From assembly GCA_043749245.1 (NCBI GenBank), contig JAYVDU010000565.1, positions 1-57,010 on the forward strand: a DNA stretch of 57,010 nucleotides, written 5' to 3'. Below are positions 25,717-39,121 of this stretch, piece after piece. The position numbers and the translations under genes were made by a program. The DNA comes from Bacteroidota bacterium (GTDB lineage Bacteria; Bacteroidota; Bacteroidia; B-17B0; Aurantibacillaceae). Numbering within the stretch: position 1 is the stretch's first letter; each line of letters begins with the position of its first letter. The notes beneath the pieces are model-generated. The model was not told the origin of the DNA. It saw only the letters and a list, made by a program, of their open reading frames with translations, and made no database searches.

Positions 25717-27270
25717 TTAATTTATTTTAAATAATTCCCCCACTTTAAATTCTTTCAAATTAGAAACAGCTTGATATTTTTGAATTTTCTCCATACTCGC
25801 TTTTAATTTTTGAGATTCTTTTTCTCCAATACCCATAAATTTAGACATCATTTTTAAATTAGATTTATCTTTTATATCAAACAATATAGCTGTTTCACAC
25901 ATTGTAGAAAAATCGAATGATGGTTGATTAAACTCTTCGATGCCTTGAGATAATAATACCACAGAAACCCCTTTAGAACGAATTTCACGCAATATTCTTT
26001 CTAACAACTCTTGAGATTTTTTTTGTTTAAAAATCACATGAGCTTCATCAATTAATAAAACATAACGCATGCTCTGAATATTGTTTTCAATAGGTGCGTT
26101 AGGCATATTCATAAATGTATTATAAATATAATTAATGATTAAAAACACAGATGTAAAACGTATTTCAGAAGGTAAATCACCAGATAAACTTAAATATACA
26201 TTTGAGTTTAAGAAATTCTTTTTAGGGTCAACTTTATTTTCAAATAACTCTAAATCACTTAAACTTTGAAGTATTTGAGATAATGAACTAGGCTTAGTCC
26301 CTTCAGAATTCAAAACTTCGACATATATATCTTTTAATGAAGGATAAACACCTGCCTTTTTACTATCAAATGCGGCGCGTGTTGCATCTTTTAATGTTTG
26401 TTGTTGTACTTTACCTAAGTTTGCATATTGTGAAATTATATCGACAAATTTATTAATGCCCATTATTTTATTCTTATCGTTTATGTTATCTATAAATGAT
26501 AATGGGTTAATTGGAAATGGCGTATGAGGTGCATCAATATATGAAGCTCCTGTTTTATCAAAGAAAGGTTTTAATGCTTTTTCATCTTCTTTTTTTAAAC
26601 CTTTAAAATCTAAGTAAATGAAATTTACTGCGCCTTTTGATTTATCAACTATTTGTTTAAGGAAACTATTTGCAAAATAAGTTTTACCTGTGCCTGAATT
26701 ACCCGCAATTGCAACGTGAGCATTGTTGTGAATTGATAAATCATTTAAGTTAAAATGAATTGGGGCATCTGTAGTTATATCTTTGCCAATTAATAATTTT
26801 ATTAACCCAGCGTAATGCGTTTTTGTAATTGTTTGATTATTATTTTTAACATGGTCTGGATTAAATGAAACTTCTTCCATGCCACCAATTCCTCTTTCGA
26901 TATTTTCAATTAAAAAATCAAGCCCAGTGTAATTTTTATTTACTTCAAACAACTTATAAATTAATTCTAAGCCGTTATCAATATGCATCTTTATGTATTT
27001 ACCAATATTTGGGTCGGTTTTATATAAGCCATATTGTTGGCAAATAATTGAAATGTAATAATCACGATATTTACCAAATAAAATATCGTCTTTGTATTCT
27101 TTTCCTTTACTATCCTTTAAATCTTTTTCTAAACTTAAAACCATACCTTTTGATATTGAGTATGAAAACGCAATTCTTGAAACATAATTTTCTGTCCCAA
27201 GATTCATTTTTTTAGTTAGCTCCTGAACTACTGCTTTATTGGCTTCTGATGTTCTTAAATTAATTAGCAT
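25717..27270 (-). CDS. dndE: DndE-like N-terminal domain fused to a HerA/FtsK-type P-loop ATPase
   Basis: N-terminus MLINLRTSEANKAVVQELTKKMNLGTENYVSRIAFSYSISKG resembles DndE. Then Walker A VAIAGNSGTGKTYF and Walker B YVLLIDEAH. Overlaps the dndD stop. Confidence 0.65.
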   Translation of the reverse strand: MLINLRTSEANKAVVQELTKKMNLGTENYVSRIAFSYSISKGMVLSLEKDLKDSKGKEYKDDILFGKYRDYYISIICQQYGLYKTDPNIGKYIKMHIDNGLELIYKLFEVNKNYTGLDFLIENIERGIGGMEEVSFNPDHVKNNNQTITKTHYAGLIKLLIGKDITTDAPIHFNLNDLSIHNNAHVAIAGNSGTGKTYFANSFLKQIVDKSKGAVNFIYLDFKGLKKEDEKALKPFFDKTGASYIDAPHTPFPINPLSFIDNINDKNKIMGINKFVDIISQYANLGKVQQQTLKDATRAAFDSKKAGVYPSLKDIYVEVLNSEGTKPSSLSQILQSLSDLELFENKVDPKKNFLNSNVYLSLSGDLPSEIRFTSVFLIINYIYNTFMNMPNAPIENNIQSMRYVLLIDEAHVIFKQKKSQELLERILREIRSKGVSVVLLSQGIEEFNQPSFDFSTMCETAILFDIKDKSNLKMMSKFMGIGEKESQKLKASMEKIQKYQAVSNLKEFKVGELFKIN

Positions 27271-29356
27271 CGCTGTACATTTTGTTATACGTTTTTATAA
27301 AACGTTTAGGTTCTACTTGCAAAAATTCCGAACTGTCTTCGTGAACATTAGTAATCAAATATGTTTTAGATATATTTGGTTCTAACATATCAAATTCTTT
27401 CTGCGTTAATTCTTTATTTATTAAAGGGAATATTACTACTTGGTCTGATACTTTAGGATAGAAGTGTTTTACGATGTTCTCTGAATGTTGTTCATCAAAT
27501 TTTTGCATTGGAGAATCAATAAATACAGGAAAGTCAATATTAGATTCTTCAACTAAACCACTTAATAGAGATGTAGCATACATTTGTTGTTCACCTTTAG
27601 ATAAAGTTTCTTTTTTAATTTCTTCCTTTCTGCCATTAAATAATCTTATATCAATATCATCTCCAATAATATCAACTTGAACTTTTTTCACAAATCCTTT
27701 TTTATGCATTAATGTTCCTAGTCCTTTTAAAATTTGTTTTTCGAGCGATACTTTTTTATTTTCTTTAAATTGTTGAATGAACTCTTTAAGGTTAGATATT
27801 TGAGCAGTAACAAGAGCATCTTTTTCTTTATTTACTTTCGATACATCTAATTTTTGAGCAATTTCTTGAATTTTTTTATTGATTTGAATTTTACTATTAC
27901 TTTTCTCTCCTTTTTCAAAAATCAAATCTTCACATTTTTTTTCAAGTTGAAAAATCTCATTATCTAAATTTTCTTTTCGACTGCGGTATTCTGCAATAAT
28001 AATATCTTCTGAATTAGCCTCTGCATCTCTTAACTTTTTTCTAACCAAATTCAATTCGTTTTTCGCTTGATTTACATCTCCTGTTATACGCTTAAACGAT
28101 TCTTTAAATGATAAACGGATGCTACTTAATAAGGCATTTAATTCGCTTTTTTCAGAATCTGAGTAATCATGTATTGTTTTGAAATCAGAGTTTAATTCAG
28201 GGGCATCAGCAAAAAAATGTTTTTTAATTAATTTCTCAAATAAATTTGCATAATATGTATGAACATTATGTTCTATGACAATTTCTGCGGGTCTTTTTTC
28301 ATTAAATAAATCATTTAAAACTTTATCAGTAGTTCCTTTAATATTTTCTTGTTGATATTTTTGCTTTTTAAAATTAGACTCATTTTCGACTTGTACTGCC
28401 ACATCAGAAAATTTAGAACCTGCAATTGCAAAAGGAATTATCTCGAATTGCTCTTTTAATTCAGCCATGTGGCTGTCTAATTTCGAGTTTAAATCAACTT
28501 CTTTTGAACGAAGTTTGTTTAATTCTTCAACCGTAATAGCACTACCTGCACGAATTAATTTCTCTTGAATATCGTTTGATTCTTTTCTTTTTTCAAGAAT
28601 TTGTTCTTTTGATTCTTTTATTTTAGTGTCGCTAGCATTATTTGATATATCAATCTTATCACTGCTTGCTTTTAAATTAACAAGTTCTTCTTTTTCTTTA
28701 TCGCTTGCTGAATCTTGACGAAGCTTTAATTGTAATTCTTCTAAATTACCTTTTAATTCCTCATATTTTTTAATGCCTAAAACCTCGCTATAAGCTTCAC
28801 TTAATTTTCTTCTTTGTTCAGGGGTATTTATTTCAGCAAGAGCTGTGATTTTTTCAGCATCAAAAAAGAAAAATTTTGCAATTTCCTTGGGCAAAATATA
28901 ATCACGAATAAAATATTCGGGCCCAAGTTCATTAGATAATTCACTTGGAATTCCATCAATTAAAATTTCAACAGTTTCTCCTGTTGTTGTTTCAATATCA
29001 TAAGTGCGTTTAATTTTTATTTCTTTACAAGGCAAGTCTGGAATATTTAACTTGTTAAATGTTATAGCTACATGAAACTGGGTTTCTCCTTTAACTTTGG
29101 CTAAACGGTTTAATGAATTTATAATATATTTATTATATCCGCCCTGATCCCCAATTTCTTTTAAATAAAGGTCGTCAACTTCCTGCATTTGTTTACCTTA
29201 TAAGCACCAAACCAGCGACATTAAAAAAGTTGTTTTACCAAAACCATTACGCCCACTGATTAGGAATATGTTTTTTGATTCTTCTGGGGTCAAATCAATA
29301 GTGTTAGAACCTTTATATATTCTAAAATTATCGAGTTCAATTTCTTTAATAAACAT
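27260..29356 (-). pseudogene. dndD: dndD (SMC/ABC-like ATPase) interrupted by an in-frame TAA at codon 53
   Basis: My translation from ATG 29356: MFIKEIELDNFRIYKGSNTIDLTPEESKNIFLISGRNGFGKTTFLMSLVWCL*GKQMQEVDD... The stop is at 29198-29200 and the frame continues unbroken to 27260. C-terminal LSKGEQQ signature and VFIDSP Walker B are present. Confidence 0.8.
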
Positions 29357-29902
29357 ATTATTTTTTCTTTTTATTATCTTTTAAATAAACATCCAACACA
29401 TTCTCTAAATGGTTAGCCTATTCACAATTTTTTTTTACAAAAATCTTTTTTGCCCTGTGCTTCCTTAATTTTAAAGAACGATTTTTTTTAATCACTACCG
29501 TAAATATACATAAAAATACTTTTAATTCGATGGTGGTGTGTGTGGTATGCGTAAATACCATTATTCTTTTGTTTGTCTTGTATCTCCTACTTTTGTATAG
29601 GTTTGTTCTCTTAGTAAATAAAAATCATGCAATTTATACACCGCTTAACTGCCTGTTTATAAATACGTTTTGCAATACACTAACATAAAATGACAACATT
29701 GGATATTAGCAAGTATCTATGTGTTAGTTTATCTTTGTAAAAAAATATACACCAATGACACATACATATTATCAAACCACAGATTCAGCTCCTACTACGT
29801 TTATGGGGTCGTTATTTTTATACTTGTTTAATTTTTATTCCCCTTCTTTTTTTACAATCAACACCCTTTAATGGTTTCAATTATACTGCAACGATTCCGA
29901 TT

Positions 29903-30748
29903 ATGAATATCTTAAAAAATTCTTATGGCGTAACAGCCGTTTTCAAACAAAAAGTGTCAAATTTCCTTACGAATGGTGGGTTTACAGGCTCTTCTCTTAA
30001 CCGTATACCACAACGCAAAGAACCCAAACTCAAAACCATAGCCGAACTTTTGCAACCAACACCAACTAATACCGAAAAAAAAGAACGATGTATGTCAAGC
30101 AGAACAAAGTCAAAAATCAGAGCGAAGACAATTGCATTTTCTAAACTCTACAAAAAATTAAGTTTTATGACTTTAACCTTTGTGAATGAGGTAAGCGACG
30201 AACAAGGTGTTTTAATGCTTCGTAAGTTTTTGGACAACATGAAAAAAAGAAAAAAAGATTTTCAGTATTTGTGGGTAGCTGAAAAGCAAATAAACAACAA
30301 GGTGTTTAAAGACAATATCCATTTTCACATCATCACCAATAAATATTGGGATGTGGCTAAGTGTTGGAAGTATTGGGTTGATTTACAACAAAAGCATGGC
30401 ATTGTACCGCGCCATGAACAGTTTAAGGCATCGTCAGCCTTTGATGTCAAAGGTTTAGTATCAAATAATATCAAAGGGATTTCAACTTACATCACTAAAT
30501 ATATTACCAAAAATGCCAGTACGTTTAAATGCCAAGTGTGGAACTGCTCTAAAAAAATATCAGCGTTATACACAGGGTTTTATTCTGACGAATCTTTTTT
30601 AGAAAATATTAAACGAGTGCCTGATATTAAAATTACAGAGGTTACAAAGGATTATTGTGATCTCCATTACATACCGCTTAATAAAACAACGATGCATTTT
30701 TACGATTCCATAGAACGCCAAAATAAAAAGATGTGGGGTAAAATTTAA
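29903..30748 (+). CDS. HUH rolling-circle replication initiator (two-tyrosine, phiX174 gpA/Microviridae-VP4-like motif set)
   Basis: Motif I SFMTLTF, motif II (HUH) NIHFHIIT, motif III STYITKYITKN (Y-x-x-K-Y-x-x-K). Confidence 0.8.
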   Translation: MNILKNSYGVTAVFKQKVSNFLTNGGFTGSSLNRIPQRKEPKLKTIAELLQPTPTNTEKKERCMSSRTKSKIRAKTIAFSKLYKKLSFMTLTFVNEVSDEQGVLMLRKFLDNMKKRKKDFQYLWVAEKQINNKVFKDNIHFHIITNKYWDVAKCWKYWVDLQQKHGIVPRHEQFKASSAFDVKGLVSNNIKGISTYITKYITKNASTFKCQVWNCSKKISALYTGFYSDESFLENIKRVPDIKITEVTKDYCDLHYIPLNKTTMHFYDSIERQNKKMWGKI

Positions 30749-30783
30749 AAACGATTCTAATTAACCCCATACTAGACAAATTC

Positions 30784-31845
30784 TTATTGTTCTTTGTAAT
30801 GGTATCGTGTGCCTTTCAGTGTTCCTGTTTTAAATATCAAGGCTTCATTAGTAAGATAAGTTAAATCTTTTTTTAAGGTATTACGAGAGTAATGTTTAAA
30901 TGCTTCTTCTACTTCGCTCATTTGCACTTTCTTTTTCTTTTTAACGAATGATAAGATTTCTTGTTGCCTCTCGTTTACATCTTTTTTAAACTTACTATAT
31001 TGCTCATATTTCGCTTCCAATCGTTGCGTGAGTGTTATTAAGCAATCCATAAAGAATAACATCCACTGATCTATTTTTTCCGTTTTCTTGTATCGGTTTT
31101 TCTGACCATCCATCAAAGCCCTATAATAATCATCTTTTCGTTCTTCTATAATATGCTCAAAGGAAACGTATTGTGTAAATTCATAACCCTGTTGCATTAA
31201 TAACAACGTGGTTAAAAGCCTTGATAATCGACCGTTTCCATCTTGATATGGATGTATCGATAAAAACTCATAAACGAAAGCTCCTGTTATCATAATGGGG
31301 TGCATATCTACTTTTTCAAAACGCTCATTAACCCACAACAATAACTCTTCCATTTCTTTTGCTGTTAATGCTGGGTCGGTTGTTTTAAAAATAGTTCGAT
31401 GTGTCCCGTCAGGATAATTAGCTACAACTTGATTAGATAAGCGTTTATATTTGCCTTTATGGCTTTGGTCTTTGCCACTATGTTTTAATAAGATGCCATG
31501 TAGTTGATGTATATATCTTTCTGATAAAGTAATGTCTTTATAATTATCAAGTATTATGTGTAAGGTTTCGTAATAGCCGACAACCTCTTGTTGTTCTCTT
31601 GTGGTGAGCTTTGTTATTTTTACCGACTTCAATAATTTTTCTACTTCTGCATCTGTTAGGGTTGCCCCTTCAATACGAGTAGATGAGCCTATACTTTCTA
31701 TGGTCGCTATTTTTTTGAGTTCTTTTAAATGTTTGCTATGTTTTAATTCTATGGTTTCCCAATTCCCTCTAAAACGGTCAATGATACCTAACTGTTTCAT
31801 GATGTGCTGAAAAGTATCGCCTGTAAATTCTAATTTCTGTTTCAT
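30784..31845 (-). CDS. Fic-family protein with N-terminal autoinhibitory helix
   Basis: Fic active site HPYQDGNGRLSR. Inhibitory (S/T)xxxE(G/N) motif occurs as SSTRIEGA near the N-terminus. Confidence 0.9.
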   Translation of the reverse strand: MKQKLEFTGDTFQHIMKQLGIIDRFRGNWETIELKHSKHLKELKKIATIESIGSSTRIEGATLTDAEVEKLLKSVKITKLTTREQQEVVGYYETLHIILDNYKDITLSERYIHQLHGILLKHSGKDQSHKGKYKRLSNQVVANYPDGTHRTIFKTTDPALTAKEMEELLLWVNERFEKVDMHPIMITGAFVYEFLSIHPYQDGNGRLSRLLTTLLLMQQGYEFTQYVSFEHIIEERKDDYYRALMDGQKNRYKKTEKIDQWMLFFMDCLITLTQRLEAKYEQYSKFKKDVNERQQEILSFVKKKKKVQMSEVEEAFKHYSRNTLKKDLTYLTNEALIFKTGTLKGTRYHYKEQ

Positions 31846-31910
31846 GGTTATGTGCTTTTTATGGATATATCCAAAACGTATCCAAATATATCCAAATATA
31901 ATTTAAAATA

Positions 31911-32819
31911 TTAACTAAAAGGGTGATGCTTTAAGAGTGTATCGGTTAAGCTGTCGATTTCTTGTAGTTCAAATTTCTCGGTGCTACTAATGTATTTGTG
32001 TCCTGCCATATACTGTGCTTGTCTTTTGCCATATACTTTTATCCAATGGATAATAATACTGGTTCGTAGTTGTGATGCGTTGTGTACTTTTTGATTGATG
32101 CCTTTTAATTCGTTAAGGATACGATACAGGTGATTGTCGATGTTGCCGATAAATAGCGATTGGTTGTTAGTTGTTTGTTTTTGGTTGTTGGAGTTTTGTA
32201 ATTGTGGCAATCCTTCGTTGATGTATTTATAAAGTTGTAATATTTGATTGGGATACAATTTTAATTCTCTTGATGCACCACGCTTACACTTTGGTATATA
32301 GATAGTGCCATCGTTTAAATTAATGTGATCTAAGCTCATTTTAGCTATCTCGCCACTAATTGCGCCTTGCCATATTAATAAGCCTGTTAAAACGTTGTTT
32401 CTTTGCTTTACAAAAGGTGTTGTTGGATTATTTGTTTTTGGTTGTTGAAGCTTTAAGTACTGATTATATAATTGCTCAAGCTCTGTGTAAGATAAAATGT
32501 TTTGTGTAATGGTTTTTAGTTCGCCTTTTAGTTTTATTTTTTTGGTTGGATTTCTTTCAATGATACCAATGTGTTTGAGGTATTCGTAATATTTGCTTAG
32601 GCTGTTTAATCTTAGTTTAATGGTTTGTACTTTGATGTTATTGGTTTTTTGTTGTTTGATAAAGTTGAGTAATTCTAAGTAAGTGAGGTTATCTATGCTT
32701 GTGTATTGTTCCTGTGTTGCCCATGAATGAAAGCGTTTCATATTATTGATGTGTTCGCTAATGGTTCGTTGGCTTAGTTTTTCGGTTTGTAAATAGCTTG
32801 TGTAGCCTTCTAATTTCAT
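31911..32819 (-). CDS. Tyrosine-recombinase-fold protein with degenerate active site
   Basis: Start moved to MKLEGY (32819). Catalytic Arg box reads GAISGE, not G-x-R-x-x-E. The C-terminal box reads AGHKYISSTEKFE, with Phe where the nucleophile Tyr is expected. Confidence 0.65.
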   Translation of the reverse strand: MKLEGYTSYLQTEKLSQRTISEHINNMKRFHSWATQEQYTSIDNLTYLELLNFIKQQKTNNIKVQTIKLRLNSLSKYYEYLKHIGIIERNPTKKIKLKGELKTITQNILSYTELEQLYNQYLKLQQPKTNNPTTPFVKQRNNVLTGLLIWQGAISGEIAKMSLDHINLNDGTIYIPKCKRGASRELKLYPNQILQLYKYINEGLPQLQNSNNQKQTTNNQSLFIGNIDNHLYRILNELKGINQKVHNASQLRTSIIIHWIKVYGKRQAQYMAGHKYISSTEKFELQEIDSLTDTLLKHHPFS

Positions 32820-32857
32820 AGTAGATAAAGGATTAATGATGTAAGATGAATGATTGA

Positions 32858-33856
32858 TTATAATTGTGTGAGATTGCTTCGTTCCTCGCAATGACGCACT
32901 ATGTGAGTATATATTTGAGTTGATTCTAAACTACTATGTCCTAAAAATTTTGCAATGTCTTCTATTTTCATCCCGCTTTGTAAAAGGTGTGTTGCAATGG
33001 AGTGGCGGAATGTGTGTGTTGCAAAATCTTTTTCTATGCCTGTGAGTTCTTTTAAATAAGCGAAGCGTTGATAAAACGCATTCATGCGCTTGCCTTGCTG
33101 ATTAAGGAAAAAGGCTTCATCATCTGTGTTTTGTTTTTTATTTTTTATGTTTAGTTTTTTGTTTTTATAACTGCCGATGATATATGTACCGTTATTCATT
33201 AAAAACCATTCTCGCCCCTGTTCTAAATAATCTTTGATGTCTTGTAAATGTTTGCTTGCGATTGGTACATAGCGTTGTTTGTTTCCTTTGGCTTTTCTTA
33301 CGAATACTAAACCTTTATAAGTATCTATATCATATATATTTAAGCGTGTGCCTTCGTCTTTGCGTAATCCGCAACCATAAAACAGGGCTATGATGGCTCT
33401 ATCTCGCTGTCCTATTGCAAGTGTATTTTCTCGATGTGGTGTAAAGGTTGCTTCATACAAAAGTTTTATTTCTTCTTTGGTTAAAATTGTTTTTTCTAAA
33501 CTCGTTGATACTACTCGCTTTGGCGTGATGTCTAAAATATGTTTATCGGTGGCGTTGATATATTTTGCAAAGGTATTTACGGCGTTGATTATTTTATTTA
33601 TACTGCTTGTGCTTAATCCTGTGCCTGTTCGCGCGCTCTTACGTGTTTTGATGTATGTAATAAAATCGTATGTTCTTTTAGCTGTTACTTGATTGATTTG
33701 AGTTATATTTTTTTCTTGTAAGTAATATAAAAATTCTCGTACGTGTATTGGCCACGAGTTCGTGGTGGTTTCGGAGTAGCCTATGATTGCTAACCACTCT
33801 TTAAAGCTTTGTTCTAAATAAATGAAGGATGTGTTTGTGAGGGTTAAGTGTTTCAT
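32858..33856 (-). CDS. Tyrosine recombinase (XerC/D-like), canonical active site
   Basis: GCGLRKDEG (Arg I), THTFRHSIATHLL (H-x-x-R), LGHSSLESTQIYTHI (His, Tyr). Confidence 0.9.
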   Translation of the reverse strand: MKHLTLTNTSFIYLEQSFKEWLAIIGYSETTTNSWPIHVREFLYYLQEKNITQINQVTAKRTYDFITYIKTRKSARTGTGLSTSSINKIINAVNTFAKYINATDKHILDITPKRVVSTSLEKTILTKEEIKLLYEATFTPHRENTLAIGQRDRAIIALFYGCGLRKDEGTRLNIYDIDTYKGLVFVRKAKGNKQRYVPIASKHLQDIKDYLEQGREWFLMNNGTYIIGSYKNKKLNIKNKKQNTDDEAFFLNQQGKRMNAFYQRFAYLKELTGIEKDFATHTFRHSIATHLLQSGMKIEDIAKFLGHSSLESTQIYTHIVRHCEERSNLTQL

Positions 33857-33897
33857 GTTTTTTTAGGGGTGTGTAGTACTTTTGGTGTTTTATACAA

Positions 33898-35493
33898 CTA
33901 CTTCGCTTTTTCCTTTGTTGGCTTGGCTTTAAGTGGTTGTACTACCGATACAACCGCTTGCAACTGCTTAACTGCTTGGAGGCTTTTGGCATGACTTTGT
34001 TCTAATACTTTTTGTATGTGTTCTTCTAATACTTTGTATTCGTTGGGATTAGTGATACTATATGTAAATCCTTTTTTTTGATTGCCTGTATTTTTTTTGA
34101 TGTAACCGTTTTGTATTAAGCTTAACATGTGTTGCTTTTGGCTGTTGACATTGAGTTTATAGTGTTGCCGTACTTCTTTGGTTTTAAATTCAATATGTTG
34201 CTGTTCTTTTAAATATGTTTTTAGTAGTTCTAAATAGTTACGTGTGGCTCCGTTTAATTCATCTGACTTGCGTAATAAAATATGTTTGATTAATTCGTTG
34301 GCTTGCTGTATGTCTTCTATTGTAGTGGTAATAAAGATTTCGCCTGTGTCGGTGTTTACTTCTTCTTGCCGTTGGTATTGATTGTAAAACGTAATAGCTT
34401 CTATAAATTGTAAGTAGTGTGCATTGGTGCGACGCTTTTTAAATACTTCGTTTGGGAGTTGTAAATATTCGGCATAGGGATTTATAATGGTGACGGACTT
34501 TAACAGGCGTTGCGCATTTTGTAATAAATTTTTGGCTTTGTGTTCTTCTTCTTTATCTATTTTGCCTGCATAGCTCTTGCGTTGGTAATCCATAATTTTT
34601 GCGTCTTGCGCTTCGCTATCGTCTAAGTATATAAGGAATGAACGGTTTGCGTTGTCTTCGTATATCTGTTCGTCTGTTGTACATGAGCCAATGCAAACAG
34701 GGCCTTCTACTTTTTTAGTGATCGTAATGGTATCGCCTTTGCTATTTTTGTGTGATACTTCTTTGATGATGTATTTTTTAGATTGCAGTTCTCTGATTGG
34801 GTACATCGAGCTTTCAGCGCCTGTTAAGTCTTCGAGTAATATTAGTTTGTGTTTTAAAATGGTTTGTTCTTGATAGTAAAAACTATTAGGTGATAAGGCG
34901 GTGATTTCTTTTTTATCTTCTTCGGGGATGCATTGCGCTACTTTTTCTTGTAAATAACTCTTTCCTGTTCCGCTACTAGCAAGGGATATAATGTGTAGTG
35001 GGTTTTGTAGTTTGCGAGTTGTGAAAATTAGATACATAATGATGCGATTTGTTTCTTCGCCTACGATGCCAGAACGACCTAAGTAGTCAGATGTTAGATG
35101 TAAGAGGTTGTGTGTTTGTAAAAATTCTTTGGCTTCTTTAATTTCTTCTTCTGTGAGGGTTTTTGTTTTGATTTGTTGGTTTTTGGATTGCTCAATTTCT
35201 TTTAAACGATAGGCTTCGAGTTCATTAATTAAATTACCTATGGCTTTTTGTATGTATTGTATGCCTACTTCCAAGCCTTCGGCTGTTGTTTTGCAAAAGC
35301 GTTGTAGCGCAGAGTTGTTGTACAAATCAAGCGTATGGCGTTGCTCGCTATTAAAGTGCTTTACTTTGATGGTGGCTCGCATGTTGTTCATCACATCTAA
35401 CTTGATGCCTCCTAATACTTCAAAATGGATTTGTTCGTGGGAGTATAATAGGTGTTCGGGGTTGGTGGTGTTTAAGGTGGGGTTGGATTGCAT
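33898..35493 (-). CDS. P-loop NTPase, primase/helicase-like (D5/P4-type candidate)
   Basis: Walker A LASSGTGKSYL and Walker B-like KLILLEDL. Context is next to recombinases and a divergent XRE regulator. The family assignment is not verified. Confidence 0.5.
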   Translation of the reverse strand: MQSNPTLNTTNPEHLLYSHEQIHFEVLGGIKLDVMNNMRATIKVKHFNSEQRHTLDLYNNSALQRFCKTTAEGLEVGIQYIQKAIGNLINELEAYRLKEIEQSKNQQIKTKTLTEEEIKEAKEFLQTHNLLHLTSDYLGRSGIVGEETNRIIMYLIFTTRKLQNPLHIISLASSGTGKSYLQEKVAQCIPEEDKKEITALSPNSFYYQEQTILKHKLILLEDLTGAESSMYPIRELQSKKYIIKEVSHKNSKGDTITITKKVEGPVCIGSCTTDEQIYEDNANRSFLIYLDDSEAQDAKIMDYQRKSYAGKIDKEEEHKAKNLLQNAQRLLKSVTIINPYAEYLQLPNEVFKKRRTNAHYLQFIEAITFYNQYQRQEEVNTDTGEIFITTTIEDIQQANELIKHILLRKSDELNGATRNYLELLKTYLKEQQHIEFKTKEVRQHYKLNVNSQKQHMLSLIQNGYIKKNTGNQKKGFTYSITNPNEYKVLEEHIQKVLEQSHAKSLQAVKQLQAVVSVVQPLKAKPTKEKAK

Positions 35494-35658
35494 AATATAG
35501 GTTACTTTAATTGTTGATAATTTTAGATATAGTACTTATTGGTGACAAATATAATACATAGGTTTTAATCAAACAACACCTTTAGGATTTGCATAGCATA
35601 AATAAGTGTCTTATTTTTGCTTTTAATACCGCTTTAAGGTGTTTTTAATTACTTATTT

Positions 35659-35991
35659 ATGACTTTTGGAGAACGTATAACATACCAACGCAAGCAAAAA
35701 AAATGGTCGCAAGATGATTTAGCCAAAAAAATTGGCACCTCTGCGCCTATTATTGGGCGCTATGAGCGTGATGAGATTAAGCCTTCTATTGAAGTGGCTT
35801 CAAAGATTGCTGAGGAATTAGATGTTACTATTGATTACTTAATTAATGGGACTGCTATTTTACTTGATAAACATAATATCGAACGTTTACAGGATATACA
35901 AAAGTTGAACGACGACGATAAACAACATGTTTTAACTACGCTTGATGCGCTTTTAAGAGATGCTAAGGCTAGGAAGGCGTATGCTAAATAA
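35659..35991 (+). CDS. XRE-family HTH transcriptional regulator
   Basis: WSQDDLAKKIGTSAPIIGRYERDEIKPSIEVASKIAEEL is a canonical Cro/C1 HTH. Confidence 0.85.
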   Translation: MTFGERITYQRKQKKWSQDDLAKKIGTSAPIIGRYERDEIKPSIEVASKIAEELDVTIDYLINGTAILLDKHNIERLQDIQKLNDDDKQHVLTTLDALLRDAKARKAYAK

Positions 35992-36033
35992 TTATATACT
36001 TAAAAATTATTTACTTAAAACCGTTTGAACAAT

Positions 36034-36321
36034 ATGAAAATACTACATTATATACAAGAAAACAGACTAGCGTTTTGGATTTCGTTATTTTATGTGATTT
36101 TAGGGGGTATTGCGGTTTGCTCAACAAATCCTGATGATCTATTATATAGCGAATTACTTGATTGGGTATGGTTAATTACTTTACCTGTAAATATGATTAG
36201 TTTAGCGTATGATTTTACTAGTGGAAGAAACTATTTTGTAATAATAATAATTCAAATAGTAATGTTTATTCCAACATTTATAATTATTTCAAAACTAATA
36301 GCTATAAAAAGAAATAAGTAA
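36034..36321 (+). CDS. Small multi-pass membrane protein
   Basis: Three hydrophobic helices (FWISLFYVILGGIAVC, WVWLITLPVNMISLAY, FVIIIIQIVMFIPTFIIISKLI). ATG at 36034; the track start is a TTG. Confidence 0.45.
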   Translation: MKILHYIQENRLAFWISLFYVILGGIAVCSTNPDDLLYSELLDWVWLITLPVNMISLAYDFTSGRNYFVIIIIQIVMFIPTFIIISKLIAIKRNK

Positions 36322-36369
36322 ATAGTGTAAAAAAATAGAAAGAGAAAATTGTTATAATTCAAACTTTGT

Positions 36370-36864
36370 TTATTTAAATATAATTGAATTCACACTATGG
36401 GTAAACTCATCTTCATAATTATTAAAATTACCTTCTATAGTATTATATGTAATAACAAATAAATCTCCTTCAATAATGGTACTGATCGAATAACTTAAAA
36501 ACACCATTTGTGATGATACAATTCTTTTTAAAAAACGTACTCCTTTAAATGACGAATAATTAATTTCTTTAACCTCTTCTATTTTACTTTTAGAATCAGA
36601 GAAACCATTTTTATATTCTTCGGATTTTAGAAATTCGTAGTTTGTTATAGGTGATTTTGCTCTAATTATATTTATCAAATATTTAACCGAAGAATCAGGA
36701 TTCATTATTGTAAATAAATCCTGATAGCCAGTATTTGTATGATCTATTTGATGTTTATATATTTTCTCTATATCAATTTTCAACTTATTTTGCACACAGT
36801 CTACTGTAAGATATTTATCAGAGTTTAGAACAAAAAAAGTTATGCAAAAAAAAAGATATTTCAT
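36370..36864 (-). CDS. Candidate immunity protein for the upstream RHS-type C-terminal toxin
   Basis: 164-aa ORF 37 nt downstream of the toxin-bearing ORF on the same strand. This is the standard rhs-CT/immunity position. No family recognised. Confidence 0.4.
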   Translation of the reverse strand: MKYLFFCITFFVLNSDKYLTVDCVQNKLKIDIEKIYKHQIDHTNTGYQDLFTIMNPDSSVKYLINIIRAKSPITNYEFLKSEEYKNGFSDSKSKIEEVKEINYSSFKGVRFLKRIVSSQMVFLSYSISTIIEGDLFVITYNTIEGNFNNYEDEFTHSVNSIIFK

Positions 36865-36901
36865 TTTTAATAAGTTTAGTTAATAATTTATTTAAATATT
36901 T

Positions 36902-39121
36902 TTAATGAGGCGCCCAATTATTTACACTTTCGATGCCTTTTGATGTTTCATATTTAACATCACTTATAAAGTCAGCTATATCATTATAAATATTTGTAGG
37001 AGTATCTTTAACCACAATTAATACCGCTTTAACTACTAATAAGTAATTTGAAACAATAATAACAGTAGCAGCTCTCTTTCCTGTTGTTCCAATTGTTAAT
37101 GGCTTTCCTTCATATGTGTTTGGTTTTGCTCCGGCAATTGGTAAAATAACATAATTTTCTACAACTTTAGCTACTCCCTTTAAACCAACAATTCCTAATT
37201 CTAAATCACCCTTCAAATTTCCCGCAGTTCGATGTGTCCAATCGCCACTTGTTTGATCATGAGGTTTACCTCCATACTCATCAATATAATCATTTCCTTT
37301 CGGTGTGAAAGTTTCTGTACCATCGTTATGTTTTGGATTATTTTCAGTACCCAAATAGACAGAGCCCATACGGTTTTTACCCACAGTGGCAGGGTTTACT
37401 GCTTTTGGATCTGGTGTCTTTGCAGAATTTTCTGCTTTTTTGTCTTTAGTAGACGTTTTAGTTTCTGTTTTATTTTTCACCTTACTACTTTCCAACCCTT
37501 CTAAATCAACCGCTAGTATTGGATTATTTGAAGCAAATTGATACGTTGAATAAAAAGGGAATTCTTTAAACATTGGATCAATACTCCAGAACTTGCCTAA
37601 TCGTGGATCATATCCTCTATATTTAAAATCTATGTGATTTCCATCTCCACTAATTTCATCATCTTTTTCTTGTTTATTAAATGAATAACGATATTTAGAA
37701 CTACTGAACGTCCTTCCGACTAACGGTGCGCCAAATGGAGTGTAATCAGTGGCATTAACCACATCAGGAAGAAAAAAATCAATCACGTTATCTCCGTTAT
37801 TATCTACTGCAATTTTCCTATCAGATAGAACTGTAAGTACATTCCCTAATTCATTCAACAACCCACGTTTACGGAGCATTAATGTTTTGGCTTTTTGTAT
37901 AGCTAACATGTGTTGTATTAGCTCTACTTGGTCTCCAGAATCATTACACGCTTTAGAAAGAAGTTCTGCTTCCTTTTTATATTTTTCATCGTGTTTTCCC
38001 ATTTTCATATCTTTATTATAGATTTTATTATATATATCAGAAACTTTATATGTGTATATACCGTCCCTATACCACTGTATTTGTATTGCTATCAGTTCTT
38101 GATTAGTAATTAACTGTGTGCCTGGTTGTTCTTTATTAATTTCATCTTGAGCTTTTAAAACACTTTCCAAAATTTTAGCTCTAATGTTTGGCTTATAAGG
38201 GCCGTATTGTCCCTCTAATAATTGGCGGTTACCTCTACCAAATTTTTCTCGATACTCCTCTTTATTATCTCTCGATTCAACCAAAAAATCTCGTATTTCA
38301 GATAATGGTTCCATCCATGCTTCGCCATTTTCTATTAGTGCATCCATTGATTTGTCTTTTGAAACAACTGTACAAACCCAACACCCAAAACGACTACTGC
38401 CACATGATGGAGTAGTTTCATCGATAACTAGAGGGCAATCACCACTATTAGCATTGCGATACAAAGTAACTAATTCCTTATGAGTACCTCCCCAAGGTGG
38501 AGAAACTTGCATCAAATATTGCCATAATTCATTAGTCGTAATGTCCTTTATTGGAGCATATACAAAAGCATTAGGTAGAACGTGCTTTCTTAAACGCTGC
38601 CCTTTAATTTCGTGTTTTTTTATTGAACGAGCTCTTGTAGCACTTTCCGCCGAACGTGTACCTAATAAAATAATTGCCTCCCCTTTTTCACTAATTTTTT
38701 CAGTAATAAAACGAGTAGTTGGATTGATTTTTAAACGTTCGGTACACCACCTAAACATATTCGTTGGGGCAGGATAACCTTTGCCAGCAACATTTAACCA
38801 AAAAGTATCTTCCAATCTAGGTCTTGTTCTTTCAACCCTAATGGGTAATCCTTGTTCTACTGCTGATTTTTCAACTCTTTTCAAAGTTCTTTCAATAAAA
38901 TCAACTATTCTAGGATTTTCAACTAATGTGTCGTTACAAACCACATAAATATCGCGTGTCCAAGCAACATCTTTAATTTTAGATAAAGCGTTCCAAACTA
39001 ATTGTAACAACAGAGTTGAATCCTTTCCACCACTAAAACCAATAATCCAAGGACGAGGGTCATCATCATGAAGATACTGGTCAATAATTTCGGATTCTAT
39101 ATATTCGATATTAAGATTCAT
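36902..39121 (-). CDS. dndC: Chimeric ORF: DndC (PAPS-reductase/PP-loop sulfurtransferase) fused in frame to an RHS core fragment and C-terminal toxin domain
   Basis: aa 1-~430 are DndC-like, with PP-loop FSGGKDSTLLLQ and Cys cluster CGSSRFGCWVCT. aa ~455-545 are DYTPFGAPLVGRTFSSSKYRYSFNKQEKDDE...YRGYDPRLGKFWSIDP...NNPILAVDLEGLE, an RHS repeat-associated core ending in a DPxGL-like motif. aa 546-739 are an unassigned CT domain. Confidence 0.8.
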   Translation of the reverse strand: MNLNIEYIESEIIDQYLHDDDPRPWIIGFSGGKDSTLLLQLVWNALSKIKDVAWTRDIYVVCNDTLVENPRIVDFIERTLKRVEKSAVEQGLPIRVERTRPRLEDTFWLNVAGKGYPAPTNMFRWCTERLKINPTTRFITEKISEKGEAIILLGTRSAESATRARSIKKHEIKGQRLRKHVLPNAFVYAPIKDITTNELWQYLMQVSPPWGGTHKELVTLYRNANSGDCPLVIDETTPSCGSSRFGCWVCTVVSKDKSMDALIENGEAWMEPLSEIRDFLVESRDNKEEYREKFGRGNRQLLEGQYGPYKPNIRAKILESVLKAQDEINKEQPGTQLITNQELIAIQIQWYRDGIYTYKVSDIYNKIYNKDMKMGKHDEKYKKEAELLSKACNDSGDQVELIQHMLAIQKAKTLMLRKRGLLNELGNVLTVLSDRKIAVDNNGDNVIDFFLPDVVNATDYTPFGAPLVGRTFSSSKYRYSFNKQEKDDEISGDGNHIDFKYRGYDPRLGKFWSIDPMFKEFPFYSTYQFASNNPILAVDLEGLESSKVKNKTETKTSTKDKKAENSAKTPDPKAVNPATVGKNRMGSVYLGTENNPKHNDGTETFTPKGNDYIDEYGGKPHDQTSGDWTHRTAGNLKGDLELGIVGLKGVAKVVENYVILPIAGAKPNTYEGKPLTIGTTGKRAATVIIVSNYLLVVKAVLIVVKDTPTNIYNDIADFISDVKYETSKGIESVNNWAPH

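Follow-up and report, generated by a model that had tools for sequence, protein, structure and literature searches.

The 57,010-nucleotide stretch analysed here (the window; contig JAYVDU010000565.1 of the Bacteroidota bacterium assembly GCA_043749245.1, Aurantibacillaceae) carries in its dnd cluster an open reading frame (ORF) of 739 aa in which DndC is joined in frame to an RHS core and a C-terminal toxin domain. Judging from its sequence and that of its relatives, this ORF is very probably an accidental chimera, the scar of an insertion and not a designed fusion, and an 8,441-bp integrative element most probably inserted in dndC as a circle, by way of an attachment (att) site in its own RHS module. 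The insert covers window positions 29405-37845 and lies within the last ~15-16 codons of dndC. The parts of the fusion and its two junctions are listed below; in the sequences a slash marks a join.

36902..39121 (-), fusion ORF DndC-RHS core-toxin, 739 aa
37846..39121 (-), dndC body, codons 1-425, PP-loop and Cys cluster intact (TIGR03183)
37839..37849 (-), near junction core TTAGGGAATGT (dndC body / element start); TTAG common, element from 37845 downward
37490..37845 (-), RHS fragment (GNVLTVLSDRK, last YD repeat, Rhs-associated core, VDLEGLE), TIGR03696; homologs P0123, P0126 and P0212
36902..37489 (-), linker, C-terminal toxin domain and stop codon; rare family, invariant H-D pair, hydrophobic helix
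29398..29408 (-), far junction core TTAGAGAATGT (element end ..CE(stop)ANHL / dndC tail); element ends at 29405
29358..29404 (-), displaced dndC 3' end (..ENVLDVYLKDNKKKK(stop)), which ends 1 nt before the dndD ATG and matches the C-termini of P0001-P0004

The host gene itself records the insertion. On the minus strand just upstream of dndD the sequence reads ..HLENVLDVYLKDNKKKK(stop), and intact relatives such as P0001 end in ..ELENVLDVYLTEKKKK. When the dndC body, up to GAATTAG at 37846, was joined to this tail, a 440-aa DndC ending in ..ELENVLDVYLKDNKKKK(stop) was obtained, like the 439-aa homologs; the comparison with intact DndC orthologs proposed in an earlier sequence-only reading of the locus thus rebuilt the native protein. 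The rebuilt dndC-dndD region aligned with the empty-site locus L080 in a single high-scoring segment pair of 3,427 nt at 85% identity, and in the empty sites L001 and L080 dndD starts within 2 nt after the dndC stop. Since body and tail rebuild a DndC collinear with both loci, the 8,441-bp insertion is a clean one. The two junctions in the window read GAATTAG/GGAATGT and CCATTTAG/AGAATGT, with no deletion or duplication beyond the common TTAG, and strand exchange probably fell within or beside these four shared bases. The pattern TTAGNGAATGT, that is TTAG(G/A)GAATGT, has exactly 2 matches in the window, which are the two junctions, on one strand, with 0.19 expected by chance. The native dndC C-terminus and the direct linkage with dndD are lost here, dndD being placed 8.4 kb downstream of the body. 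Neither the dndC tail at 29358-29404 nor the remaining dnd genes (21.6-29.4 kb) had been mentioned in the sequence-only reading, which also passed over the mobile-element genes in between.

Independent data were taken from the Logan assembly of run SRR23617243, where the IF-2 gene of the window is found as well (L085, 99.98% identical). The Logan contig L086 equals window 37075-29405 at 100% identity and terminates exactly at ..CCATTTAG (29405), while the contig L087 overlaps it by 30 nt (k-1) and extends through the dndC tail into the split dndD. The two contigs therefore confirm the far junction and the nonsense codon in dndD. The unitig break at the far-junction node suggests a second continuation in the reads, for instance a circle, a tandem or another copy. 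At its other end L086 stops within the toxin gene, where the hydrophobic segment begins (window 37075); strain variation may be the cause, or a second copy of the toxin 3' end that has diverged. Metagenome scans for two targets, the element end and the exact dndC site, filled or empty, found nothing.

The entry as a circle is read from the ends of the element. The far end encodes ..KKNCE(stop)ANHL, the near end GNVLTVLSDRK, and across the join the two form a continuous RHS sequence, ..CE(stop)ANHL/GNVLTVLSDRK.., and the resulting (Y)EL(S/A)NHLGNVL is found upstream of the last YD repeat in the RHS homologs P0123, P0126 and P0212. That the ends join into RHS sequence points to entry as a circle through a site inside the element's own RHS module. 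In the rebuilt circle junction a TAG stop stands four codons upstream of the crossover and the toxin frame has no start codon; the cassette, formed by core fragment, tip and candidate immunity genes, is start-less and has dndC sequence on both sides. We defined attP as ..CCATTTAG/GGAATGTACTT, attB as ..GAATTAG/AGAATGTGTTGG, attL as dndC/RHS and attR as element/dndC tail. The 14-mer core CATTTAGGGAATGT, a mark of junctions of the window type, was found in 13 of 83 loci, always on the strand of the element and conserved to the base, wobble positions included; two of the matches sit at contig ends. The dndC site matches 10 of 11 core bases and encodes L-E-N-V in the frame of the L-G-N-V of the element. 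It is because both genes read the core as L-x-N-V that the outcome is in frame.

Taking these observations into account, the following mechanism is proposed. The circle would carry the att core CATTTAGGGAATGT inside its RHS module. Relatives of the element are located at the corresponding conserved stretch shortly before the RHS core of large polymorphic-toxin genes, which would be its normal target; CATTTAGGNAATGT upstream of an RHS core in a large ORF would mark such a natural target. Integration there would exchange the resident tip and immunity genes, in frame, for the incoming ones and leave the old tip downstream as an orphan. In the window the element would have used the look-alike site TTAGAGAATGT in dndC, giving rise to the DndC(1-425)-RHS core-toxin chimera. 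The rhs toxin/immunity cassette that had been described as grafted onto dndC is indeed present, but it did not come alone: it is one end of a complete integrative element of 8.4 kb.

The composition of the fusion ORF agreed in most points with what had been read from it before. The profile TIGR03183 (DndC) matched fusion aa 15-430 with 445.8 bits (cut-off 290.4; profile positions 6-445 of 447), the motifs SGGKDS (aa 30-35) and CGSSRFGCWVC (aa 240-250, a CxxxxxxCxxC cysteine cluster) were both found, and the body is 94% identical to the uninterrupted 439-aa P0001, so the ORF begins as a DndC with PP-loop and Cys cluster, as claimed. The switch had been placed too far downstream, at aa 435-455; it lies at aa 424-426 (nt 37846/37845). 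The profile TIGR03696 (Rhs-associated core) was matched over its full length (positions 1-76 of 76) at aa 460-543 with 45 bits against a cut-off of 32.5, and every RHS motif quoted earlier was located: DYTPFG at aa 459-464, YRYSFNKQEKDDE at aa 477-489, YDPRLGKFWSIDP at aa 504-516 and VDLEGLE at aa 538-544. This last position is DLEGLE or ELEGLE throughout the aligned homologs covering that stretch, in keeping with the DPxGL-like motif reported as retained, at which self-cleavage is predicted. A hydrophobic segment had likewise been noted in the toxin part, where it occupies aa 684-704. Only one YD repeat (DYTPFG) precedes the core, and all further upstream is DndC. Family profiles detected in the fusion ORF neither a long YD-repeat shell nor an N-terminal delivery or secretion domain; as both are absent, the chimera would not be a weapon. 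In all, 314 foreign residues stand in for the C-terminal 15 residues of native DndC.

Along the strand of the fusion, the insert continues after the RHS/toxin part with the following genes.

36370..36864 (-), 164-aa candidate immunity protein, directly after the fusion ORF
36025..36321 (+), 98-aa hydrophobic membrane-like protein, alternative immunity candidate; 57-59% identical neighbours in L081 and L083
35659..35991 (+), Xre-type helix-turn-helix (HTH) regulator, PF01381 1.2e-16; position kept in most copies
33898..35493 (-), P531, 531-aa P-loop backbone protein and family marker, 55% identical to a 508-aa protein of L002
32858..33856 (-), IntA, XerC/D-like tyrosine recombinase, PF00589 7.5e-36; TIGR02224/02225
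31911..32891 (-), IntB, second XerC/D-like recombinase, 44% identical to the IntB of L002
30784..31845 (-), Fic/DOC-HTH cargo gene, PF02661 1.5e-15
29903..30748 (+), rolling-circle Rep-like cargo gene, PF23343; phrog_3419

The catalytic Tyr of IntA is present (LGHSSLESTQIYTH), as it is in 74 of 74 copies. At the corresponding position IntB has Phe (codon 307, TTT, 31971-31973), where 75 of 77 family members have Tyr. Considering that Phe replaces the catalytic Tyr of IntB, this copy may be stuck, that is, unable to complete recombination.

Several observations weigh against integration by the recombinases of the element at a preferred site, and they are gathered here. No full-length rhs gene sharing the core, for which a search had been suggested, occurs within the 57-kb window, and the natural target in this genome was not seen. 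The window minus the element was scanned with matrices derived from 19 type-1 sites in other loci; as width and pseudocount were varied, the rank of the dndC site among ~97,000 positions moved between 1st and 60th, and its score was always far below the genuine sites (9.7 against at least 25.5). The idea that dndC is a strong preferred target was rejected on this basis; its site is a weak pseudo-site and the integration event was probably a rare one. With so low a score, microhomology-driven illegitimate recombination may have acted on the target side, and the Tyr-to-Phe change in IntB makes it uncertain how and when this copy recombined. In the independent assembly the junction between dndC body and RHS was not found, the neighbouring contig stopping short of dndC. 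Among the relatives, the host ORFs of L052 and L008 are without Pfam RHS repeats. Besides, we infer the recombination activity, the expression of the chimera and its toxicity from sequence.

The strongest competitor, which we nevertheless hold to be decidedly unlikely, is insertion of a circular or replicating element by illegitimate (RecA-independent) or microhomology-mediated recombination, with no catalysis by IntA and IntB. The 10 of 11 bases in common, the score far below genuine sites and the IntB without catalytic Tyr speak for it. It would have to explain, however, why the breakpoints on the element side fall exactly in the family 14-mer, where the RHS homology begins in the circular relatives, since a random break in an 8.4-kb circle would rarely hit that 14-mer, and why nothing beyond TTAG was deleted or duplicated. 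An assembly chimera of the dnd locus with an unrelated rhs or mobile-element contig is barely credible. A repeat-like element of this kind does break short-read assemblies, many relatives are on contigs of 5-9 kb, L086 stops at the junction and the near junction is seen in the window only; but a mis-join yields one false junction, and the two present here are reciprocal and restore dndC base for base; at the far one, L087 independently spans element end, dndC tail and dndD. A join at ~37.8 kb, which had been raised as an artefact that would undo the fusion, is accordingly not favoured. Equally hard to accept is that selection has maintained DndC-RHS-toxin as a functional architecture, such as an abortive toxin linked to defence and freed by RHS self-cleavage. 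In its favour are the kept frame, the complete core and DLEGL motif, and the candidate immunity genes that come next; yet none of the 120 best DndC homologs (all of 433-480 aa) has an RHS extension and none of the 120 best homologs of the RHS part has a DndC domain, the native dndC tail survives 8.4 kb away, dndD is broken, the common L-x-N-V codons explain the frame, and RHS shell and delivery domain are absent. Between the two alternatives offered by the sequence-only reading, the striking recombination scar is upheld and the unusual arrangement for toxin delivery or expression is not.

Site-specific entry of an integrative circle, the reading that we prefer, was compared with what is found in relatives. 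Species-representative genomes were scanned with P531, which gave 219 confirmed matches, and 76 loci were kept; they hold 90 element copies, from Flavobacteriales, Chitinophagales and other Bacteroidota. Upstream of the element a co-oriented RHS core lies within 4.5 kb in 39 of the 48 copies having at least 3 kb there, and 14 of these 39 cores belong to ORFs of 900-2811 aa. Downstream of IntB a second RHS core follows within 5 kb in 30 of the 38 copies having at least 5 kb, usually in an ORF of 300-400 aa. Nearly all RHS cores (96/97) are co-oriented with the element. In L002, P0123, the best full-coverage toxin homolog, is beside a P531 homolog and two recombinases, and L081 has the gene order of the window insert: C-terminal toxin, 165 aa, 98 aa, HTH, P531, Int, Int, cargo. 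The host ORFs contain RHS and TSP3 repeats in L027, LRR, fn3 and laminin-G in L052 and no Pfam family in L008; what they have in common is a very large gene that ends, on its 3' side, in an RHS core.

The junctions were compared by self-BLAST and YD-anchored analysis, and at least three types were distinguished: NHL/GNVL (window, L008, L018, L022, L029, L063, L077, L079), ..KKRI.YYPFG (L010, L013, L021, L027, L030) and ..YYPFGLTMSGISSK (L023, L039, L067, L074). At element-end junctions stops are located 2-7 codons upstream of NHLGNVL (L022, L077, L079, L029), and others show unrelated sequence a few codons before the RHS homology; in host junctions the YD anchor is preceded by 957-2385 residues (L008, L018, L063). 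Tandem arrays occur in L023, L030, L043, L047, L053, L055, L068 and L074, with a short core at every junction, and in L030 (the F. covae chromosome) a 38-bp core is common to all three junctions of a 6,555-bp repeat. Four contigs of ~8 kb (L017, L022, L077, L084) have identical termini of 57-127 nt, as would be expected of circles or tandems. For the window copy, the sign of a circular form is only the assembly-graph break exactly at the core.

Locus L063 has three type-1 sites (2771, 13586, 18186), with one element; an identical element-type left arm, ..AGTGTGCAGTTAGGTAAC, is found at the second and third, as if an orphan array had been built up by one integration after another. A start-less module was considered as a rule for the whole family and rejected, since 7 of ~46 downstream modules have an ATG and an MGCLKLSY leader (L011 14798, L036 4922, L038 7709, L047 14854, L048 9613, L066 5506, L076 6326). 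The leader is also present at L084 5873. It is encoded by the element end, and the window copy has a degenerate version of it containing a stop. After integration, this leader would give the displaced old tip a start codon of its own.

On balance, these copies probably represent a widespread and apparently undescribed family of tip-swapping elements of Bacteroidota, circles of ~6.5-11 kb with an XerC/D-like pair and an att site in the RHS-core/toxin module, which would supply the integrase-bearing intermediate lacking in the displacement model. That model has rhs tips displaced through homologous recombination and proposes a circular intermediate (Jackson et al. 2009, PMC2935791). In the description of polymorphic toxin systems, XerC/D are mentioned only beside polyimmunity loci (Zhang et al. 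2012, PMC3482391), and integrase-like genes were reported near Rhs loci of bee-gut Proteobacteria (Steele et al. 2017). We found no literature on a recombinase-bearing element targeting RHS cores, in a search that left most subscription journals outside, so the novelty is provisional. As in Rhs C-terminal displacement (PMC2935791, PMC3482391), a core fragment with tip and immunity arrives and the old tip is left downstream, and related loci show such arrays; unlike it, the cassette here is part of an element with an XerC/D-like pair, a replication-type protein and a defined att core. The window cassette also differs from orphan rhs-CT cassettes in being in a non-rhs gene and not downstream of an rhs of the same clade.

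Other known systems share some of these properties. In integrative elements and prophages such as tRNA-gene islands, attP carries the 3' end of the target, and the use of pseudo-att sites is well known. The element resembles these islands in the integration by tyrosine recombinases at a short core and in supplying a replacement 3' end; it departs from them in that the replacement differs, bringing a new toxin and immunity, so the gene product is changed rather than restored. With integron cassettes it has in common a promoter-less, often start-less content that is expressed only after site-specific insertion at an expressed platform. Membership in the integrons was rejected: there is no resident intI/attI platform and there are no attC hairpins, the recombinases travel along, and expression is through in-frame fusion. 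The rAID loci of Bacteroidales are defence loci in which a single recombinase precedes an array of two or more co-oriented orphan immunity genes that have conserved motifs between them (PMC12247911). Like these and the XerC/D-linked polyimmunity loci (PMC3482391), the element is from Bacteroidota and places a tyrosine recombinase beside Rhs-type toxin/immunity material. It was not assigned to rAID, since it has two recombinases, no immunity array and ~6.5-11 kb with one tip inside a toxin gene.

If this family is real, rhs tip swapping and orphan arrays, attributed since 2009 to homologous recombination, would arise by site-specific recombination, with a testable mechanism of named recombinases and a 14-nt core that would account for the rapid turnover of polymorphic toxins in Bacteroidota. 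Culturable carriers are Flavobacterium covae, F. jejuense, F. gawalongense, Aquimarina muelleri and Arenibacter catalasegens, and the mechanism might be turned into a tool for in-frame C-terminal tagging or swapping in Bacteroidota. As the case of the window suggests, an unrelated host gene can acquire a toxin part from such elements. The fusion itself is deflationary: it would be a scar that probably killed the phosphorothioation operon, and not a new design for toxin delivery. In annotation, caution is needed with in-frame RHS-core chimeras, as they can be by-products of such elements.

Concerning the genes of the insert, profile scans assigned the 164-aa protein to no known family. The proposal that it is immunity-like was strengthened by 67-71% identical genes directly downstream of the homologous toxins in L081 and L083; the 98-aa protein is an equally good candidate, and immunity may be conferred by either of them. 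P531 shares 30-34% identity with segments of plasmid proteins that carry a toprim or CHC2-zinc-finger primase annotation (Aureispira, Aureibacter, Leptospira and Ralstonia megaplasmids), so replication is its probable function; no phage relatives of the element backbone, P531 included, were found. The cargo between IntB and the element end varies, with Fic/DOC and Rep-like genes here and a ParE-type toxin-antitoxin in L002 (4106-4674) and L081 (5939-6519). Over window 36000-37200, where the 164-aa and 98-aa genes and the 3' part of the toxin lie, G+C falls to 22-27%, while the window and the complete element both have 33%; this local drop fits a recently exchanged cassette.

The toxin family comprises 9 representative clusters, whose alignment has invariant Y, NP, D and H-D residues, and the same domain is the tip of the 3068-aa RHS protein P0242. 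PF08398 (parvovirus-type phospholipase A2) matched 1 of 9 members weakly, with E = 0.01, and had no match in the window copy. A sequence search of the PDB with the toxin domain returned only noise, and the AlphaFold (AF2) model from the 9-sequence alignment was unusable (mean predicted local distance difference test score of 46). If the toxin is made, it would be held in check by the co-inserted immunity genes.

The N-terminal 425 residues of the fusion are those of an ordinary DndC of dndBCDE; unlike in that system, the C-terminus is foreign, the operon is split and dndD is interrupted. The rest of the cluster is located downstream.

27260..29356 (-), dndD, 698-codon frame, in-frame TAA at codon 53 (29198-29200)
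21616..27270, rest of the dnd cluster: DndE-AAA, 176-aa GIY-YIG-like, DndB/DGQHR, 267-aa ORF, IscS/DndA-like (+)

DndE is fused to an FtsK/HerA-like AAA ATPase (517 aa) and IscS is divergent, as corresponds to a variant dnd cluster; the uninterrupted relative L001 (13408-18119) has the same layout and order. The insert separates dndC from dndD and dndE. Codon 53 of dndD is TAA (..LVWCL(stop)GKQ..), against TAT (Tyr) in relatives, and the frame is otherwise open; the split is also present in the Logan contig L087. Because of this nonsense codon the phosphorothioation operon is probably inactive. The nonsense codon, the IntB change and the insertion may have followed one another in any order. 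Sorting domains of the type IX secretion system (T9SS) are present among the proteins of the window.

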